A stretch of 64,000 nt of DNA from contig JBBQRQ010000004.1 in the NCBI GenBank assembly GCA_038214755.1, positions 32,001 through 96,000 on the forward strand, given 5' to 3'. The position numbers and the translations under genes were made by a program. Origin of the DNA: Verrucomicrobiota bacterium (GTDB lineage: Bacteria; Verrucomicrobiota; Verrucomicrobiia; Limisphaerales; CANJXF01). Of this stretch, positions 11,250 through 63,390 are shown in pieces (the stretch's first letter is position 1; every line of letters begins with the position of its first letter). Below the pieces are notes generated by a model. It had not been told where the DNA came from and did no database searches. It was given only the letters and a program-made list of their open reading frames with translations.

Positions 11250-11333
11250 GCGCGAGTGGTGAAATGGCAGACACGCCAGACTTAGGATCTGGTCCCGCAA
11301 GGGGTGGAGGTTCAAGTCCTCTCTCGCGCACCA
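11250..11333 (+). tRNA. tRNA-Leu(TAG)
   Basis: GCGCGAG acceptor stem, CCAGA-CT-TAG-GA-TCTGG anticodon arm, long variable arm, GGTTCAAGTCC, encoded CCA. Confidence 0.97.
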
Positions 11334-11346
11334 AATTGCCAACTTC

Positions 11347-11465
11347 AAACACCAAACTTCAAACACCAAACACCAAACACCAAACACCAAACACCAAACA
11401 CCAAACACCAAACACCAAACACCAAACACCAAACACCAAACACCAAACACCAAACACCAAACATC
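11347..11465 (+). repeat. Heptamer tandem array (AAACACC)n
   Basis: 14 perfect units at 11361-11458 plus degenerate flanking units. Confidence 0.97.
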
Positions 11466-11467
11466 AA

Positions 11468-12481
11468 TCACCTGTTCGCCCGGGTTTGCGCAGCGATGGT
11501 TTCCAAGTCAACGAGCGTGGCACGGCCTTTGGATTTCTTCACTAAATCGCAAATCAATTCAATCGCTTTGAATTCTGGATCGCTGGGATAAAGCACCGCC
11601 GGATGCGCGAGAAAGTCGTAAACCTCTCCGTGCGCAATCGCCCATTCGACCCCGAGGCGAATCGCTTTCAGAAAATCAGCGAGCTTCCATTTGCCATTTC
11701 GAAAAGCGCCGATATCGCTGATCGGACTCATCGGAATATCAATCAAGCCGCTGGGATAAATAAATGGTTGCGCGTCGTTTTGCGCTCGAATGATATCGTC
11801 GAAAACTTTCTTGGTTGGCGCTGAGCCGGGATCGCCATACAAGTGCGCCGGATATTTGCAACTGATCCATTTGAAACCCAAATCCAAAAACATCTGTTGC
11901 ACGTCCGGGGTCGGAGTGAGTCCGTCGGCAAAACCGCCCGGCGTGCGAAAACCGGCTGGCTCAATTCCCAGCCGCGATTTGATCGCGGCGCTCGCCATCT
12001 GAATATTTTCGCGAATGACATCCAGCGGCTTCTTTCCCTCGACCAGCCACGGCGCGCGTTTGAAAATGTATTGAACTTCATCCAGCGTTTTTGCCCGGAC
12101 AAAAACGTGATCGTAGGTGTGGTTGCCAATGCGATGGCCCATCGCCAAAATTTCTTTGAGCCAATCGACGTTCTCCTGCTCCAGCGCGCGACCAACCAGA
12201 AAAAAATGGATGATGCCGCCATGAGCTTTCACGCGTCGCGCTGCTTCAACCGCGTATGTTTTTGTTTCGTCATTGAGATTTCCCTTTTCATAATCCCAAT
12301 GCGTGTCGTCCCAGTTCGGAAAATTTCGCGCCATTTCCAAATCAAGAGTGATGGCGATGAGCGCCTTCTTCGCCGGATTTTTTTTCTGTTCCTGCGCAAA
12401 CAGTTTTTCGCCGAGAGCAATTCCGCTCGTAGCCAGCGCGGAAGTTTTCAAAAAATCGCGTCGCGAAAAAACGGGTAGCAT
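11468..12481 (-). CDS. Tat-exported polysaccharide deacetylase family protein
   Basis: SRRDFLK twin-arginine signal; ITLDLE, GNHTYDH, GFRTPGG. Confidence 0.85.
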   Translation of the reverse strand: MLPVFSRRDFLKTSALATSGIALGEKLFAQEQKKNPAKKALIAITLDLEMARNFPNWDDTHWDYEKGNLNDETKTYAVEAARRVKAHGGIIHFFLVGRALEQENVDWLKEILAMGHRIGNHTYDHVFVRAKTLDEVQYIFKRAPWLVEGKKPLDVIRENIQMASAAIKSRLGIEPAGFRTPGGFADGLTPTPDVQQMFLDLGFKWISCKYPAHLYGDPGSAPTKKVFDDIIRAQNDAQPFIYPSGLIDIPMSPISDIGAFRNGKWKLADFLKAIRLGVEWAIAHGEVYDFLAHPAVLYPSDPEFKAIELICDLVKKSKGRATLVDLETIAAQTRANR

Positions 12482-21589: not shown

Positions 21590-21620
21590 CTTGAGGGTGA
21601 TTCGAACTGGCGGTCAAAAT

Positions 21621-21769
21621 GTAGCGCAGGATTGCATCCTGCCGTATCGCAGGTTTTCCATTTGCGAGGGCCGCCAGAACACAAGACTTTTGGAAACCTG
21701 AAGACTCTCTCTTTGCGACGGTCAGCCGGTTTCAAACCGGCGATACGGCAGGATGCAATCCTGCGCTAC
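21621..21769. repeat. REP-like pair, family B (GTAGCGCAGGATTGCATCCTGCCGTATCGC)
   Basis: Long inverted pair; relatives at 23525-23815 and 48351-48483. Confidence 0.85.
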
Positions 21770-21819
21770 ATAGCCCGCTCGATTATTGACGAATCGTTTT
21801 GACCGGTTAAAATTTTTCC

Positions 21820-23296: not shown

Positions 23297-23598
23297 AAGC
23301 GAAATTGCAACAAGGTCAGACGTGGAAGCGCGGTCAACAATACCTTCGCATCACCCGGCTTGAACGGCTCGCCGTCGAATACAAAGTCATCAGCGACCTC
23401 GCCACCAGACACGGAGCGCACCACAAAGCCACGAAGAAAGAATTTTGTTGTTTGATAAAAAACGCCGAGTTGCTTCCAGCAAAACAAGTCATCTCTCTTG
23501 AAACATCGCCCGTGGAAACCCAGCGTAGCGCAGCTTTGCAAGCTGCTGTATCGCCGGTTTGCAACCGGCAGGACGTCGCGACATCGGGTGTGATTTAA
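23290..23598 (+). CDS. Small hypothetical protein; C-terminus runs into REP/MITE DNA
   Basis: Overlaps MIOX stop; globular-looking N-terminal ~65 aa. Confidence 0.55.
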
Positions 23599-23759
23599 AC
23601 TGGTGGTCACAACCGGTGCCATGGAAAGCGGCGGAGGGCCGCCGCACTCCAAGACGCTCGCGCGAATTTCAAGGTCAACTGTGTATGAACGGCGCGAAGC
23701 GTCTTGGAGTGCGCCAGTCCTCTGGCGCTTTTGTTTGACCGCCAGTTTAAATCACACCC
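23586..23759. mobile_element. 174-bp MITE with 24-bp TIRs and 9-bp TSD
   Basis: TIR GGGTGTGATTTAAACTGG(T/C)GGTCA matches 23/24; CGCGACATC at 23577-23585 and 23760-23768. Confidence 0.9.
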
Positions 23760-23886
23760 CGCGACATCCAGCGGGTTGCAAACCCGCGATACAGCAGGTT
23801 AAAAACTGGCGCTACGACACCGATTTGCGCGGCGCGCGACAAGCGCAAATAGTTTTTTCACGACGAACAATTATTTTTTTAAAATC

Positions 23887-33706: not shown

Positions 33707-33742
33707 TTGACGGTATGGCTGGAGTGCCATACAAAGTATGGC
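33707..33742 (+). promoter_or_regulatory. Putative sigma70 promoter with overlapping operator for vapBC
   Basis: TTGACG-17-TACAAA; GTATGGC/GCCATAC/GTATGGC half-sites at 33713, 33726, 33736. Confidence 0.75.
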
Positions 33743-34006
33743 ATGAAAATGACGATGCATATCGATGATGAGTTGTTAGCCAGAGTCATGGACGTCACCG
33801 GCGCACACAGCAAGACGAACGCGATCGATTTGGCGTTAAGAGAAATGGACAGAAGAGCCAAATTAACCGAATTGGCTTCCAAAGGATTGGGGATGACCGC
33901 GAGTGAGTTGAGGGAATCCTTTGATCCTGCTTCCTATCTGGAAACCTCTTACGCTTTAGCGGAAAAACCCGTGACTTATGGCCGTAAGCCCCGTTCTCGT
34001 AGATAG
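33743..34006 (+). CDS. VapB-family antitoxin
   Basis: MKMTMHIDDELL....TGAHSKTNAIDLALRE ribbon-helix-helix pattern; overlaps PIN gene. Confidence 0.85.
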   Translation: MKMTMHIDDELLARVMDVTGAHSKTNAIDLALREMDRRAKLTELASKGLGMTASELRESFDPASYLETSYALAEKPVTYGRKPRSRR

Positions 34007-34373
34007 CAGTTTTTACATTCGCGCCGCCCGGGAAGGGCGCGACCCCCTGCGGCTCCTGGCGCCAATTGCCGCCATGCGAGACGTGGCTGTGTGCGGCGTC
34101 ATCCGCTGTGAGGTGGGGCGCGGCGTGAAGAACCCAAAAGTGTTGGATCGATACAATGCTTTTTGGGACGTAATGATTTACGTGTCCACCGACAATCGGC
34201 TTTGGGATAACGTCGAGAAAACGCTTTGGCAACTGGATCGGCAGGGAATTATTCTGCCACTACCTGACGTCGTCATTGGTTGTTGCGCCATGCGGATCGG
34301 CGCGGTGGTGCTGACCCACGACGATCATTTTTACCAAATTCCCGGAGTGCGAGCCACAGACCGAATCGACTGA
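33978..34373 (+). CDS. VapC / PIN-domain toxin
   Basis: VLVDSS, E, PDVVI, LTHDDHF acidic PIN residues. Confidence 0.88.
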   Translation: MAVSPVLVDSSFYIRAAREGRDPLRLLAPIAAMRDVAVCGVIRCEVGRGVKNPKVLDRYNAFWDVMIYVSTDNRLWDNVEKTLWQLDRQGIILPLPDVVIGCCAMRIGAVVLTHDDHFYQIPGVRATDRID

Positions 34374-34511
34374 GTTGATTTGGGATCTGCTGGAGAAATT
34401 TCACTCGGTGATTTTCAAGGCAAGACGAGCGAACTGTTCCCAGCGGAATTGTCCGCCAACAAATGATTTTGCGTCTTTGACTGGGAAACGTAATTCGACT
34501 AAAAGTTCCTT

Positions 34512-34781
34512 ATGAATGCCGACAGTGCTGTGACCGAAGTGGAAATATGGGATCGCGCCATCCGTCCGGAAGCGGGCGATTTTTCCGCAGCAGCATCGCG
34601 GGATTTGTTGCGCTTGCGATTGTCGGACACGGACGCCAAACGGGTTCAGGAACTTTCAGCCAAGGCAAATGAAGGCGGGTTATCGGAACTCGAAGCCGAA
34701 GAACTTGATCACTATCTCAACGTCGGTCGCGCGCTGGAATTCATCAAAGCCAAAGCCCGTCTCTCCCTGAAGGCTGCTTGA
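34512..34781 (+). CDS. Small hypothetical protein, partner of downstream HNH gene
   Basis: 89 aa, own promoter-like motif, 7 nt upstream of the HNH ORF. Confidence 0.7.
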   Translation: MNADSAVTEVEIWDRAIRPEAGDFSAAASRDLLRLRLSDTDAKRVQELSAKANEGGLSELEAEELDHYLNVGRALEFIKAKARLSLKAA

Positions 34782-34788
34782 CCGCCAA

Positions 34789-35193
34789 ATGAACGCGGCG
34801 TTTCGAAAAGCCGTTCGGGATCGGGCGCTGCAACGTTGCGAGTATTGTCGTTTTCCTGAGCAATTCGCCGAACTTCCGTTTCACTTCGACCATATCATCG
34901 CCCAACAACACGGCGGAAAATCGGAATTGGAAAACCTGGCGTTCGCTTGTTGTTATTGTAATCGCTACAAAGGTCCAAATCTTTCGGGTCTCGATCCGGA
35001 TTCAACGAAAGTGGTTCCCCTTTTTCATCCGCGACAGAATTCCTGGGGCGAGCACTTCTCCTGGACCGGCGCGTTTATCGACGGCAAAACCGCCATTGGC
35101 CGCGCAACGATTCAGGCATTGCGATTGAACCGCCCCGACGCAATTGCCGTGCGACAACTTTTGATTCGGGCAGGAGATTACGGTGTGAGTTAG
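34789..35193 (+). CDS. HNH endonuclease
   Basis: RCEYC, DHIIAQQHGG, NLAFACCYCNRYKG, LFHPR..W..HF. Confidence 0.9.
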   Translation: MNAAFRKAVRDRALQRCEYCRFPEQFAELPFHFDHIIAQQHGGKSELENLAFACCYCNRYKGPNLSGLDPDSTKVVPLFHPRQNSWGEHFSWTGAFIDGKTAIGRATIQALRLNRPDAIAVRQLLIRAGDYGVS

Positions 35194-35360
35194 CAAAGCC
35201 GCGCCGGAATCGTGAACAAGATTATCTCGCGCAGAAACCGCTTCTAAAAAAACTGGATGGTGGAGAAATTTCACTCGCGGATTTACAAGGCGAGACGAAG
35301 GAATTATTCGACGCGCACAAAAATTGCCATTTAAGCAACCCGAGTTTGGCGACTTAAATT

Positions 35361-36677
35361 TTACGCGTCGAGCTTCACTTCTGCTTCTTCAAAATTCTGA
35401 AAGGCTTCAACCAGGTCCACCATGAACCGTGCCGCGCTGCCGCCGTCGATCACCCGGTGGTCATAGGATAAAGTAATCGGTAAAATCAAACGCGGTTCGA
35501 TTTTCTTTTCCTTCGTCACGATTGGTTTGAACGCCCCTTTGCCCATTCCTAAAATTGCCACATCCGGTTTGTTCACGATCGGCGTGAAGTGTCCGCCGCC
35601 AAATGCGCCTTGATTGGAGATCGTGAAACTGCCGCCCTGCATTTCTTCCGTGGAAATTTTTCGGTCGCGCGCTTTCGCGGCGAGTTCGCTCAACTCTTTG
35701 GAAATTTGCGCCAAATCTTTTTTATCCACGTCGCGAATGACGGGAACCATCAAGCCCTGCTCGGTTTCAACGGCGACGCCGATGTGAAAATATTCTTTGA
35801 AAATAATTTCCTGCGAACTTTCATCGAGACTCGTGTTGAAAATGGGATGTTTTTTTAAAGTGTTCACCACGGCTTTCACGGCGAAAGAAGTCACCGTGAG
35901 TTTGGCCCCTTTTTTCTCGTAGGCATCGGCGTATTTTTTCCGAAGCTCCATGATGTTCGTCAAATCAACGTCATCAAACTGCGTGACATGCGGAATCGAA
36001 TTCCAATTCTCGGTCATGCGTTGCGCAATGACTTTACGCAACTCGGACATCGGTCGTTTGTAAATGGAACCGAATCGGGAAAAATCAATTTGCGGCGCGG
36101 CTTTGCCCGGAGTTTTTTGCGCGTCGGGCGCGGAAACATTTTTTTGTTTCGCAGCGCGCTGCAAGTTTTGGATGAACGTTTTTAGATCGGCCAAAATAAT
36201 TCTGCCGCCGCCTTCGCTGCCGCGAACTTTGCGCAAATCAATTCCCAAATCCTGCGCCAGCCGCCGCAGGGCAGGGGACGCGGGCGGAGGAAATTTCCCC
36301 GTGTATTCGAATTCTTCTTCGGGCGCCTCCTCAACTTCTTCGCCTTCTTCTCCCTTGTTTTTTTCCTGGCGCTCGGCGGGTTTTTTCGCGGGAGCTTTTC
36401 CGGGCGAGGCCTTTTTTGGCGCGGAAGCGGCGGGAGCTTCGGCAACGCCGCCCGCCAACGAAAGAATCGGTGAACCGACGGAAATTTTCTGTCCCTCTTG
36501 AACGATGATTTTGGAAACTTGTCCGGCGGCGCTCGATGAAATCGGGGTCACGGCTTTGCCCGTTTCAAGTTCGATAATGGTTTGGCCTTTGGTGATTTGA
36601 TCACCTTCCTTGACGAGAATGGTCACGACCGTTCCCGCGTCGGCGCCTTCACCGAGTGGAGGTAATTTTACGTCCAT
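35361..36677 (-). CDS. aceF: Pyruvate dehydrogenase E2, one lipoyl domain
   Basis: LETGKA lipoyl site, ASPALRRLA binding domain, DHRVIDG. Confidence 0.93.
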   Translation of the reverse strand: MDVKLPPLGEGADAGTVVTILVKEGDQITKGQTIIELETGKAVTPISSSAAGQVSKIIVQEGQKISVGSPILSLAGGVAEAPAASAPKKASPGKAPAKKPAERQEKNKGEEGEEVEEAPEEEFEYTGKFPPPASPALRRLAQDLGIDLRKVRGSEGGGRIILADLKTFIQNLQRAAKQKNVSAPDAQKTPGKAAPQIDFSRFGSIYKRPMSELRKVIAQRMTENWNSIPHVTQFDDVDLTNIMELRKKYADAYEKKGAKLTVTSFAVKAVVNTLKKHPIFNTSLDESSQEIIFKEYFHIGVAVETEQGLMVPVIRDVDKKDLAQISKELSELAAKARDRKISTEEMQGGSFTISNQGAFGGGHFTPIVNKPDVAILGMGKGAFKPIVTKEKKIEPRLILPITLSYDHRVIDGGSAARFMVDLVEAFQNFEEAEVKLDA

Positions 36678-36691
36678 ATTTTAATAAGTTT

Positions 36692-37160
36692 TAACCACGG
36701 ATGAACACGGATGAACACGGATAAAAAAAGTCATAAGACGATTCGTTCCCACTGCAGCCTCGCGTGTTTAAAATTCAGAATCAGACCCACCCGGACCTTC
36801 GCAATTCGTAAATAATTCATCATCTGCCCGCGTTCGTGGTCGCTAATTCGTTCGATAACTTTCGCGTCCACAATAACAGTCTCGTAAGCGATGAGATCAG
36901 GAATGAATTTCCCCACCATCCGGCCTTTGTAAGAAACATCGAAGTTGCGTTGCTGGTGGTGCGGAATTCCTTGTAAAGTAAATTCAACAACCAGAGAATT
37001 TTCGTAACATTTTTCACCCAAACCGTGGCCAATTCCATTTAGCACTTCGAAGGCGCATCCCAGAATGGAATGGGTCTCTTCTTTCAGCAAGAGTTTGGAA
37101 CTGACGCCATGAAGCAGGTCCACTTGTGTATCCGTGTTCATCTGTGTTCATCCGTGGTTA
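36692..37160. mobile_element. GxxExxY cassette bounded by 32-bp terminal inverted repeats
   Basis: 36692-36723 matches the reverse complement of 37129-37160 at 31/32. Confidence 0.75.
36731..37141 (-). CDS. GxxExxY family protein (putative PD-(D/E)xK nuclease)
   Basis: GHGLGEKCYENSL, FIPDLI, IVDAK, QMMNYL, GLILNF. Confidence 0.92.
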   Translation of the reverse strand: MNTDTQVDLLHGVSSKLLLKEETHSILGCAFEVLNGIGHGLGEKCYENSLVVEFTLQGIPHHQQRNFDVSYKGRMVGKFIPDLIAYETVIVDAKVIERISDHERGQMMNYLRIAKVRVGLILNFKHARLQWERIVL

Positions 37161-39731
37161 GCTCACTGAAAGAATTTCGGGAAAAATCTTTTCGGGATTC
37201 ACGCCCAAATCTTTAATCGCATGGGCGACAATTTGTTTTTCAATCGCGCCTGACTTTGCCAACGCCCATAACGTGGCGATCACTGTCGCCTCGGCATCCA
37301 CTTCAAAAAATCTTCGCAACGCCTGCCGCGTATCACTGCGACCGAACCCGTCTGTTCCCAAAGTCGTTAAGCCACCGGGAACCCATTGTTGGACCTGATC
37401 GGGCACCATTTTCATGGAATCAGAAACGGCGATGAATGGACCTTTTTCATTGGCAAGCAAATTTTCGAGGTAAGATTTTTTCTGTGGCTCGATTGGATGA
37501 AGCATATTCCATCGCTCGACTTTCAACGCGTCGTTGCGCAACGATTTGTAATTCGTCGCGCTCCAAACATCCGCCGACACGTCGTAACGCTCCGCCAAAA
37601 TTTCCTGCGCTTTCAAAGCAGAGCGAATGATCACGCCGCTCCCGAAAATTTGCGCCTTGTGTTTTTTGCCGTCGAGACCCGCCTGAAATTTATACAACCC
37701 TTTTAAAATCCCTTCCTCCACGCCTTCCGGCAGGGCGGGCATTTGATAGTCTTCGTTGTAAAGCGTGATGTAATAAAAAATTTCCTCACCCTTTTCATAC
37801 ATGCGCTTCAAGCCGTCGTGAACGATGACCGCCGTTTCAAAATCAAAAGCAGGATCGTAGGCCAAAAGATTTGGCACCGTGCTCGCCATGAGCAAGCTGT
37901 GGCCGTCCTCGTGTTGAAGACCTTCGCCGTTGAGCGTCGTGCGGCCGTACGTTGCGCCCAGTAAAAATCCTTTCGTGCGGCTGTCGGCCGCGAGCCAGAT
38001 TTGATCGCCGACGCGCTGAAAACCGAACATCGAATAAAAAATATAAAACGGAATCATGTTCACGCCGTGGTTGGCGTAAGAAGTTCCCGCCGCCACGAAT
38101 GAAGAAATGGAGCCCGCTTCGTTGATCCCTTCTTCGAGAATTTGTCCATCGATCGCCTCTCTGAAATAGGCCGCCGTGCCTGCATCGACGGGGTCATACA
38201 ATTGTCCTTTGGACGAATAAATTCCGAACTCGGCGAACATCGTGTCCATGCCGAACGTGCGCGCTTCGTCGGGAATGATTGGAACAACATTGCGGCCAAT
38301 ATTTTTATCGCGCAGCAACGCAACCAGAGTTTGCGTGAAACCTTTCGTCGTCGAGCCGACCCGCGTCGGTCCAGAGCCTTTCAGCGCGTAGGAGAAACTG
38401 CTCAGCGGCGGGATCATCAACGGCGGCGCTTTGACAACGCGTTTCGGAATTGGGCCGCCCAGTTTTTTCCGCCGCTCCAAAAGATATTTGATGACGTGCG
38501 AATCGGATGAGGGACGATAGAAAGGATACTCCGCGATCTCTTCGTCGCTGATGGGAATATCGAAACGAGTGCGAAAATCGCGCAACTCTTTCTCGTTCAT
38601 TTTTTTCTGCTGATGCGAAATGTTGCGCCCTTCGCCCGCTTCGCCGAGGCCGTAGCCCTTGACCGTTTTGGCGAGGATAACCGTCGGTGAACCTTTGTGT
38701 TCCACCGCCGCCTGGTAGGCGGCGAAAACTTTTTGCGGATCGTGGCCGCCGCGCGTGAGCTTGCGCAATTCCTCGTCGGTCATGTCATTGACGAGTTCGA
38801 GCAGCTCGGGATATTTTCCAAAAAAATGGCGGCGAATATAACTGCCCGGCTCGACGGTGTACTTTTGATAATCTCCGTCCACACACTCTTCCATTCGCTT
38901 GACGAGGAGGCCGGTCTCATCTTTGGCCAGCAGAGCGTCCCAATTGGATCCCCAAATAACTTTGATGACGTTCCAGCCCGCGCCGCGAAACGCGCCTTCG
39001 AGTTCTTGAATAATTTTTCCGTTGCCGCGAACCGGGCCGTCGAGACGTTGCAAATTGCAATTCACCACCCAAATCAAATTGTCCAACTTCTCACGCGAAG
39101 CCAGCGTGATGGCGCCGAGACTTTCCGGTTCATCGCTTTCGCCGTCGCCCATGAACATCCAAATCTTCGGCTCGTTTTCTTTCACTAAAATGCCGCGCGC
39201 CTGGAGGTAACGAATGAAGCGCGCTTGATAGAGTGACATGATCGGGCCGAGACCCATCGAGACCGTGGGAAACTGCCAAAAGTCCGGCATCAAATACGGA
39301 TGAGGATAAGACGAAAGCCCGCCGCCCTCGGCCAATTCCTGGCGAAAATGTTGCAAATGTTTTTCCGTCAAACGGCCTTCGAGAAAGGAGCGCGCATAAT
39401 TTCCCGGAGTGGCGTGGCCTTGAAAATAAATTAAATCCGCCGGCCGTTCGCCCTCGCTCCCGCGGAAAAAATGGTTGTAGCCAATTTCGTAAAGCGTCGC
39501 GCACGACGCAAAACTGGAAATGTGTCCGCCGAGGCCATGCCCCTTGGACTCGCCGTTGACGACCATCGCCATCGCGTTCCATCTGATGATGCTTTTGATG
39601 CGTCGCTCCGTGTCGCGGTCGCCGGGAAACGTCGGCTCATCTTCCGGCGGAATGGTGTTGAGGTATGGCGTGCGAATCGGATCGCTGTCCGTGTGCGAGG
39701 TGATGTCGATGTCGCGTCTCTTGGGTTTCAC
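37158..39731 (-). CDS. aceE: Pyruvate dehydrogenase E1, homodimeric type
   Basis: GGHISSF, FQGH, SSYPHP, GDGESDEPES, NLQRLDGPVRGNG, GEGLQHEDG; start uncertain (GTG 39731 or TTG 39773). Confidence 0.95.
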   Translation of the reverse strand: MKPKRRDIDITSHTDSDPIRTPYLNTIPPEDEPTFPGDRDTERRIKSIIRWNAMAMVVNGESKGHGLGGHISSFASCATLYEIGYNHFFRGSEGERPADLIYFQGHATPGNYARSFLEGRLTEKHLQHFRQELAEGGGLSSYPHPYLMPDFWQFPTVSMGLGPIMSLYQARFIRYLQARGILVKENEPKIWMFMGDGESDEPESLGAITLASREKLDNLIWVVNCNLQRLDGPVRGNGKIIQELEGAFRGAGWNVIKVIWGSNWDALLAKDETGLLVKRMEECVDGDYQKYTVEPGSYIRRHFFGKYPELLELVNDMTDEELRKLTRGGHDPQKVFAAYQAAVEHKGSPTVILAKTVKGYGLGEAGEGRNISHQQKKMNEKELRDFRTRFDIPISDEEIAEYPFYRPSSDSHVIKYLLERRKKLGGPIPKRVVKAPPLMIPPLSSFSYALKGSGPTRVGSTTKGFTQTLVALLRDKNIGRNVVPIIPDEARTFGMDTMFAEFGIYSSKGQLYDPVDAGTAAYFREAIDGQILEEGINEAGSISSFVAAGTSYANHGVNMIPFYIFYSMFGFQRVGDQIWLAADSRTKGFLLGATYGRTTLNGEGLQHEDGHSLLMASTVPNLLAYDPAFDFETAVIVHDGLKRMYEKGEEIFYYITLYNEDYQMPALPEGVEEGILKGLYKFQAGLDGKKHKAQIFGSGVIIRSALKAQEILAERYDVSADVWSATNYKSLRNDALKVERWNMLHPIEPQKKSYLENLLANEKGPFIAVSDSMKMVPDQVQQWVPGGLTTLGTDGFGRSDTRQALRRFFEVDAEATVIATLWALAKSGAIEKQIVAHAIKDLGVNPEKIFPEILSVS

Positions 39732-39902
39732 TGTGAAAATCTGCAATCGCCCGGCAAATTTCGTGGCGAGCAAGGCAGAGTTGTAAATTGGACAACCGAG
39801 TCAGCCAACTTATTTTTTGGGAATTCTTTTTCTTTTCGCTCTTAGTTTTGTTGGGAATGGAAATTACCATTGGCAGTACGATAAAAACGAATCAACCACT
39901 CA

Positions 39903-40771: not shown

Positions 40772-41037
40772 AAATCCGAATTCCGAAATCCGAGACCCGA
40801 AAGAAATCCGAAGACCGAAAGTGCCGCGGCATACGGTGGGTGGCAAAGTACTTTTCTGACTGGCGGCTGGAAGCCGCCGCAATCCCGCGCGCGGGACTGG
40901 AAGCGTGCGCTACAGTTCGTAGCGCAAGCACCCTTGCCTGCAAGTTACTGAGGCTGCCAGCTTCGTGCCGGAAAGTTATTTTTCGTATTCGGATTTCGGA
41001 CTTCTTTCGGATTTCGGGTATTCGGATTTCGGATTTC
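40772..41037. repeat. Inverted TCCGAAA-heptamer clusters enclosing a degenerate REP-like pair
   Basis: Same flanks as 9377-9510; inner ...GCGCTAC / GTAGCGC... Confidence 0.75.
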
Positions 41038-48289: not shown

Positions 48290-48350
48290 AGCCGGGAGGA
48301 TTCAATTGAAAGATGGCTCGCCCTCGCCATGAACTTCAAGGTAGGGCACC

Positions 48351-48483
48351 GTAGCGCAGGATTTCATCCTGCTGTATCGCCGGTTTGCAACCGGCAGAAC
48401 GCTGGCAGATTCAACGCGCTCGAAAAATCCAGACGCCCGCAGGTTGCAAACCTGCGATACAGCAGCTTAAAAAGCTGCGCTAC
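48351..48483. repeat. Family B REP pair
   Basis: GTAGCGCAGG...GTATCGCCGGTTTGCAACCGGCAG ... CTGCGCTAC. Confidence 0.85.
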
Positions 48484-48627
48484 GAAATTCTCCCATTCCA
48501 AAAATGTCCCCGTAACTTCCTGTAACAAGCTATCTCGTCAGCGCGTCATTTGGTTTGTCCGACGGCTTTAAAAATTGTAAGCTCTGGATAATTCAAATGC
48601 TCAATTCAAAATCCACTTCTCCTCTGT

Positions 48628-62926: not shown

Positions 62927-63390
62927 GCTCGCCCTCACCCTAACCCTCCCCCCCCAAGGAGAGGGAATAGCTCGCGCGTCTCTCGAACGTGCGGAAGTTT
63001 AGTCTGTCATTCCCCTCTTCTGTCATTCGCAAAAGAAAGCGGATAATAATCCGGCCGCTCCAGTTTACCAAAACGCAGCAATGATTCTCCCTCTCCTCGG
63101 AGGAGAGGGCCGGGGTGAGGACGAGCGTTTCTCTTCACTGAAAATAGTTCGTTAATTACAGTTCCAGTTAGAGGTTGTTCGCCCTCACCCTAACCCTCTC
63201 CCCCGAGGAGAGGGAATAGTATCGGCGTCTCTGGAAAGTTCGGAGGCTCATTGTGGCATTCCCGCCTTCGGGTCATTCGTAAAAGAACGCGCATCACAAC
63301 CCAGCGCGTTTGCATTACCAAAATGCGGGTGAACCATTCTCCCTCTCCTCGGAGGAGAGGGCCGGGTGAGGTCGAACGTTTCTTTTCACT
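62927..63390. repeat. Two tandem palindromic units (CCCTCACCCTAACCCTCTCCC..GGAGAGGG ... CCCTCTCC..GGAGAGGGCCGGG(G)TGAGG)
   Basis: Units begin ~62928 and ~63179 with near-identical ends and diverged centres. Confidence 0.85.

Follow-up and report, generated by a model that had tools for sequence, protein, structure and literature searches.

Inverted arms of tandem decamers enclose a predicted GxxExxY nuclease gene between aceE and aceF: a possible repeat-plus-partner-gene system

Known repeat systems and their likeness to the locus

The closest described systems are families of short repeats served by a partner gene. In REPIN-RAYT systems, REPtrons and TIRtrons, a low-copy chromosomal partner gene lies between its own inverted repeats, and there are many gene-less pairs of about 100 bp with conserved arms and a variable spacer. 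The partner gene stays long at a site and is rare on plasmids and phages (excerpts of 10.1101/2021.07.10.451892 and PMC3733652). The locus described here is alike in all these respects. It differs in the enzyme and in the arms. The REPIN-RAYT partner is an HUH/Y1 transposase, whereas the protein here is a predicted PD-(D/E)xK nuclease by its only family match (TIGR04256/PF13366) and by its fold. REPIN-RAYT arms are palindromic REPs with a GTAG or CGTC tag, whereas the arms here are non-palindromic tandem 8-11-mers. The REPIN-RAYT partner is inherited vertically at one site; the cassette here groups by site, has reached many sites and phyla, and correlates weakly with its host.

Paired tandem repeats of similar make were described in 2009 in Geobacter metallireducens as class 2 'global regulator binding sites', with three tandem units, variable spacing and 21 paired sites that lie on opposite strands (PMC2700814, in excerpt). 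Their consensus, TCTCCGTS[Y], is the reverse complement of one arm class found here, the octamer class; the aceE-aceF unit belongs to the decamer class. The sites were interpreted as those of IHF/HU-type regulators, and the accessible portion of that paper proposes neither a partner gene nor mobility. Heptamer repeats have been described with no gene-arm link in the available parts of two further reports (PMC4679880, PMC4853749). Such a link would explain the abundant paired tandem repeats that are annotated as regulator sites.

Other elements share some of the features. The intervening sequences (IVSs) of 23S rRNA in Coxiella and Leptospira are likewise sporadic, about 430-470 nt long, and have one small ORF and a terminal stem of about 30 bp, but they lie in rRNA and are cut by RNase III (PMC4990558, in excerpt), whereas our unit lies between protein genes, encodes a nuclease fold and lacks a G-U bias on its transcribed strand. 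MITEs and insertion sequences also have terminal inverted repeats, empty alleles and gene-less relatives. They differ in that we find here no DDE, HUH, serine or tyrosine enzyme and no uniform target duplication, and in that the gene-less interiors are not deletion derivatives of the gene. Finally, Cas4/RecB-like PD-(D/E)xK nucleases (SSO0001, 4ic1; the archaeal Hjc resolvases) share the fold, but at 12-17% identity, and there is no CRISPR context here.

The protein family itself has drawn little comment in the portions of the sources at hand: PF13366 is listed as of unknown function with multiple transfers (PMC3424549), GxxExxY is mentioned in passing (10.1101/2021.01.26.428298), and the name also occurs in PMC12085832. 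A literature search, thin in its coverage of subscription journals, found no account of a link between GxxExxY genes and arms; the nuclease-and-arm element family is apparently undescribed. The present locus contributes three things: an empty allele, nearly precise, that is set in a phylogeny; an association of the gene with the number of arms that is specific to one clade; and negative outcomes for two of the mechanisms that had been proposed. We see an even chance that this unit represents a repeat-plus-partner-gene system in its gene-bearing form, functionally REPIN-RAYT-like, with an unrelated PD-(D/E)xK enzyme.

The unit between aceE and aceF

The DNA analysed, hereafter the window, is a stretch of 64,000 nucleotides from a genome of Verrucomicrobiota. 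In its pyruvate dehydrogenase operon, a unit of 469 bp enclosed by inverted arms lies between aceE and the E2 gene (Table 1). Each 32-nt arm consists of AAC and three 10-mer units, and the two differ by 1 mismatch. The pair is not due to chance, because its inverted-repeat score is 29 and a score of at least 20 was reached by only 4 of 500 control genes. A preliminary description had outlined this anatomy, and it holds in detail: the arms enclose a single gene, the outer TAA of the upstream arm is the aceE stop, the start codon lies within the same arm, and there is no transposase of a known class, the PD-(D/E)xK protein being the sole product of the one ORF inside. The aceF start had been placed 15 nt past the distal arm; 14 nt lie between, and the ATG begins at the 15th base. 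Part of this spacer may belong to the insertion, or may be a target duplication. An Rfam scan of the unit gave no match at E up to 1, and scans for promoters and terminators gave nothing above chance. The gene would be read from the host operon, with its start supplied by its own arm. As a side observation, the first ATG of the upstream arm opens an out-of-frame ORF (37151-37014, minus strand, about 45 codons) that runs over the beginning of the GxxExxY gene; the 10-nt period of the arm places its units in different reading frames.

Table 1. Parts of the aceE-aceF unit (window positions) and the arm-flanked four-helix-bundle genes of the same genome (G000; contig:position)
Feature	Position	Strand	Remarks
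aceE, pyruvate dehydrogenase E1, upstream host gene	37158..39773	-	TIGR00759 above its cut-off; stop TAA 37160-37158 is the outer end of the upstream arm
Upstream arm	37129..37160	-	TAAC and three 10-mer units; in-frame ATG at 37141 is arm position 18 and encodes MNTD
GxxExxY gene	36731..37141	-	ATG 37141 to TGA 36731, 136 aa; TIGR04256/PF13366; predicted PD-(D/E)xK fold with E43, D82, D92, K94, Q106xxxY110
Downstream arm	36692..36723	+	the upstream arm inverted, with a mismatch at 1 of 32 positions
AT-rich spacer ahead of E2 start	36678..36691	-	14 nt; exceeds the 4-nt spacer of empty alleles by about 9 nt; similar in the other filled allele
aceF-type dihydrolipoamide acyltransferase E2, downstream host gene	35361..36677	-	PDHac_trf_long is the best NCBIfam model, at 443 bits (cut-off 552, not reached)
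Arm-flanked four-helix-bundle genes	C148:909, C5:19141, C43:11004, C55:3039, C157:2064, C49:5297, C2:28380, C64:26712		

The protein is a predicted PD-(D/E)xK nuclease. It scores 121.1 bits with TIGR04256 (cut-off 35) and 113.3 bits with PF13366 (cut-off 22). Its predicted structure (pLDDT 92) has the PD-(D/E)xK fold, with the best match to Cas4 SSO0001 (Z 8.5, rmsd 2.8, 97 residues aligned). Nearly all the top structural matches are PD-(D/E)xK proteins, and since other members follow closely behind SSO0001, the fold does not name a function. Foldseek gave no match to the model at E up to 0.001, a sequence search of the PDB gave nothing above chance, and the ESM Atlas returned PF13366 clusters only. 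The E-D-DxK-QxxxY layout is also that of Cas4/RecB-like nucleases. The catalytic residues are kept in 77-80 of 80 homologues (D82 in 78, D/E92 in 77, K94 in 78). The family is very large: 7,925 representatives at 50% identity match this protein.

The end of aceE served as query in a search of 60 relatives for empty alleles, and the 29 best loci other than our own were inspected. In 22 of the 29, an E2 gene follows aceE, and G005 is the one of these that has the cassette. Within the genus the cassette is absent from the junction in seven of eight genomes, G005 again being the other carrier. Four of the empty alleles read TAA, 4 nt and ATG, and three have spacers of 7, 8 and 69 nt. The unit had been proposed to be an insertion, and the empty alleles show that it is one; the gene is not one that is vertically conserved at its site throughout. 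The filled allele of G005 has the same arms, and its protein is 85% identical to ours. Elsewhere the junction holds a degenerate gene-less arm pair (G058) or a single arm (G052).

The aceE tree places the filled G005 as sister to the empty G001 (support 99/98), and a clade uniting the two carriers is rejected (p-AU 4e-5). Between the carriers, 22 of 49 four-fold sites differ in the cassette gene and 100 of 191 in aceE; for the cassette gene dS is about 0.9 and dN/dS is 0.09. Because the four-fold divergence is like that of aceE and dN/dS is so low, the insertion is old and under selection, not a recent jump. Its history would be either one gain followed by more than one almost precise loss, or two gains.

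The ends of the insertion can be placed only approximately. Next to E2, the two carriers have in common about 9 additional AT-rich bases, and a duplication of TAA fits only with one further small change. Here and at other cassette sites, comparison with relatives that are strongly diverged showed no uniform, clean target duplication. At one site in G003, the cassette lies between copies of ATTT, a 4-bp repeat of which the empty allele of our genome has one copy; this is a lone and imperfect case. As to excision, no RNA run was listed as containing the unit, and the contigs of the one DNA run that contains it, which may be the source of this genome, show no joint removing the whole unit; rare variants drop out of such contigs.

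Arms, sites and transcripts of GxxExxY genes in other genomes

The 61 genomes hold 159 TIGR04256 matches. Of these, 113, mostly full-length, were taken for analysis of flanks, and 110 had enough flanking sequence. An inverted repeat spans the gene with a score of at least 14 at 93 of the 110 loci and of at least 20 at 55. The lower score was reached by 4.8% of 600 cross-paired flanks and by 10 of 500 control ORFs, which were long ORFs of this genome and not matched in size to GxxExxY genes. Thus the arms are neither missing from other GxxExxY genes nor equally frequent around arbitrary genes, two outcomes that would have spoken against the preliminary description. They consist of tandem units of about 8-11 nt and fall into several classes. 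On a tree of 108 GxxExxY proteins, arm class changes 31 times, compared with 69.6 times when shuffled, and 0 of 200 shuffles were as low. The three GxxExxY genes of our genome carry three different arm types, so arm class follows the protein and not the host. It should be noted that arms and gene are linked, and hence their joint ancestry does not alone show recognition.

The closest relatives of the aceE-aceF gene keep its own type of arm. A GTDB scan found 99 homologues, of which the closest 80 were kept and 76 had enough flank; decamer arms are present on both sides at 67 of the 76, on one side at 7 and on neither at 2. The 80 span Verrucomicrobiota, Planctomycetota, Thermodesulfobacteriota, Spirochaetota, Lentisphaerota and others. 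The commonest layout is arm-gene-arm (45/74), followed by arm-gene-arm pair (10/74). The arm supplies the in-frame ATG in 56 of 72 loci, and the distal arm ends 4-25 nt ahead of the next ORF in 35 of 60. Among the neighbour ORFs scanned against Pfam (91 of 156) are thrS (18 loci), valS-type (7), argF/argG (7), alaS (4) and genes of restriction-modification operons. On mobile DNA we found six distant plasmid matches, no phage record and nothing in viral contigs. Arm-gene-arm cassettes occupy housekeeping operon junctions in several phyla; they are patchy, long-lived at a site, under purifying selection, and have their own arm type in each protein lineage. One reason for their long stay just before essential genes may be that an imprecise deletion would be risky.

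The attachment to sites brings to mind a free-standing homing endonuclease, which would cut the empty allele of its own junction and have the cassette copied by homologous repair, the arms being protective or by-products. Cassettes do group by site on the protein tree (7 changes vs 22.1), on which one short-branched subclade spans many phyla, and they sit in conserved operons such as those of thrS, valS, argF/argG and alaS. Furthermore, the two aceE-aceF carriers are not a clade, and thrS distance correlates only weakly with cassette distance (rho 0.18, p 0.14, trimmed alignment). Yet one protein clade sits at many unrelated sites, and the conserved DNA is the arm rather than a host target. 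The four-fold divergence of the carriers resembles that of aceE, as vertical descent predicts, and homing leaves gene-less pairs unexplained. We consider it very unlikely.

The preliminary description further proposed that the unit targets stop codons. This was rejected: among 56 homologous loci, the TAA of the arm serves as the upstream stop in 1, neighbour ORFs having been picked for this count with a crude caller, and a T stands before only 14 of 70 upstream arms. The overlap at aceE is incidental.

The same description suggested that the arms could pair in the mRNA. The duplex can form: in the predicted fold of the RNA the arms pair (-166 kcal/mol, z -4.5). Selection for it is another matter. 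On the sense strand, arm mismatches are more often of A-C than of G-U type (86 vs 48 in 93 loci, p 0.001; 36 vs 24 in 46 proximal pairs, p 0.16), a comparison confounded by N-terminal coding, and thus there is no sign of selection for the duplex. One reading of the A-C lean would be that pairing over the start codon is weakened. These numbers bear on the view that the unit is an RNA-level intervening sequence, in which RNase III cuts the stem in the operon mRNA and removes or controls the nuclease message while aceE-aceF expression is spared. In Coxiella, the 23S IVS ends in a stem of 28 bp that RNase III cuts, and it contains a four-helix-bundle ORF (PMC4990558, in excerpt). The start codon here lies within the stem, and at 49 of 80 loci the gene has the same orientation as both its neighbours. 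In addition to the lean of the mismatches, however, processing of the RNA explains neither the spread of the arms nor the tie between arm type and protein clade. Pairing in the message may be a side effect; as an account of the unit we find it quite unlikely.

The other two GxxExxY genes of this genome (L001 1404-1992, L002 1387-2113) are flanked by octamer and by 9-11-mer arms, and direct copies of an arm lie on each side of the gene. At these two sites, what relatives have is one arm (G001, G008) or a pair without a gene (G001). A gene between direct arm copies, together with relatives that have arms only, is consistent with recombination between arms as the route of gain or loss. At several junctions the arm class differs from one relative to another. 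In our genome, relics of arms or gene-less pairs, of another class, stand where other genomes have cassettes: before thrS (C42:~18400), before valS (C56:~12300) and at C48:1835; the same slots are therefore reused.

Gene-less arm pairs and what may move them

A decamer arm profile, seeded from 21 arms of the same genome, matched 74 times in this genome and 7 times in the reversed genome. Of the 74 matches, 50 make 25 inward pairs, and there are no outward pairs. One inward pair encloses the GxxExxY gene and the other 24 are gene-less, 62-411 bp long, of the kind that the preliminary description had suggested looking for. Their interiors are mostly mutually unrelated or contain other nested repeats. 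That they are deletion derivatives of the gene is ruled out, tblastn having found no similarity in the interiors searched. Four of their sites were compared with 4, 4, 1 and 1 relatives, and the pair was absent from the relatives at all four.

Arm number was compared in 60 of the genomes, all but G009; those with a homologue that is 56% or more identical count as having the cognate clade. At least 20 decamer arms were found in 16 of 18 genomes with this clade and in 3 of 42 without; outside our own family, with one genome per family, the counts are 13/15 and 2/36. The threshold of 20 was picked after the counts were seen, and related genomes are not independent. Genomes that have only other GxxExxY clades (27) have a median of 3 decamer arms, and the number of 8-mer arms does not track the decamer-cognate clade (p 0.51). 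Exceptions exist on both sides: G022 and G050 have the gene and few decamer arms (6 and 3), and G007, G024 and G042 have 26-38 decamer arms without the cognate clade. G043, 96% complete, has 75 octamer arms and no GxxExxY match; these may be a relic population or be served by another partner. A look for cargo genes, in four long inward decamer pairs of G046 and one octamer pair of G043, found nested repeats, no GxxExxY match and, by eye, no convincing gene. The comparisons indicate that gene-less arm pairs turn over fast in genomes with the matching protein. Gene-less inverted pairs tied to a partner gene, as in REPIN-RAYT systems, are thus found here as well.

Could the arms have arisen locally, by slippage and inverted copying, with the gene a passenger of ordinary horizontal transfer? 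The two arms of a locus are indeed more alike than arms of different loci (2.9 vs 6.8 mismatches), and most gene-less interiors are mutually unrelated. But the same three-unit arm flanks the decamer clade in distant phyla, which largely refutes a local origin, and arm counts track the clade. We hold it highly improbable.

A more serious contender is a shared factor acting in trans (a transposase that moves MITEs, an HUH enzyme or host recombination), which would move the arms while GxxExxY and four-helix-bundle genes are cargo or arm-binding partners. Our genome has 11 matches to the four-helix-bundle family (TIGR02436), and eight of the nine genes inspected sit between their own inverted tandem arms, each with a different unit (Table 1). 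Since these proteins have no known catalytic activity, the arm-gene-arm build needs no nuclease. A MITE about 195 bp long is also present as a separate element. It has outer TIRs and TAA/TTA duplications at its flanks; its pattern matched 68 times, and 38 of these matches are preceded by TTA or TAA. In G005, 18 of 20 fetched loci (L190-L209, picked from BLAST matches) are copies of one such MITE, which share their interior and wrap the decamer pair in outer TIRs; this type has amplified recently there. Arm counts are inflated accordingly, because some arm pairs are spread by the MITE. The junctions held by different arm classes in different relatives, and G043 with its many arms and no gene, also fit a shared mover. 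What speaks against it is that arm abundance tracks one protein clade and not GxxExxY genes generally, that the catalytic residues are conserved, and that the outer MITE TIR, tried as the cassette end, lies beside none of 146 cassette arms and adjoins at most 13 of the 74 decamer arms here. We judge a shared mover unlikely on the whole.

We return to the repeat-plus-partner-gene system. That the GxxExxY protein recognises and acts on its own arms seems to us an evenly poised proposition; that it alone drives their movement is somewhat doubtful. The protein would bind the three tandem units of its arms, whose 10-bp period is about one helical turn, and would nick or cut at or beside paired arms, as a duplex, a cruciform or a fold-back single strand. 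Host repair or recombination might then copy arm pairs into new AT-rich intergenic sites, and rarely the whole cassette would move. Deletions that run from arm to arm, or from one direct arm copy to another, would remove the cassette. In its fullest form, which we offer tentatively, GxxExxY is the catalytic engine of a new minimal class of mobile DNA: a 130-residue nuclease that reads its own arms, spreads gene-less pairs in trans and occasionally moves its own gene, without a transposase of a known class, arm and specificity having co-diversified into six types or more. Should the nuclease be the mover, a REPIN-RAYT-like repeat-partner system evolved a second time on a different chemistry. 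If arm and specificity did co-diversify, these proteins would be a natural set of very small sequence-specific nucleases. For each clade of this very large orphan family the arms are a concrete candidate substrate, and its function becomes testable with swapped arms.

Further repeats were noted. Members of the MITE family of about 195 bp occur genome-wide (e.g., C114:10288-10482), with several unrelated types of interior repeat and a near-constant length. The pyruvate dehydrogenase operon is interrupted again, between the E2 gene and lpd, by a block on the opposite strand (33707-35193, plus strand) with vapB-vapC, an 89-aa ORF without a Pfam match and an HNH gene, the last two enclosed by 52-nt direct repeats (34388-34439 and 35258-35309). 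The window is also rich in dispersed repeats (11315-11489; 40779-41028; 62951-63366; 21617-21776, 23521-23817 and 48344-48485), which include a heptamer tandem array, an inverted repeat built of heptamers, a cluster of CCCTCTCC-type repeats and GTAG-type REP pairs.
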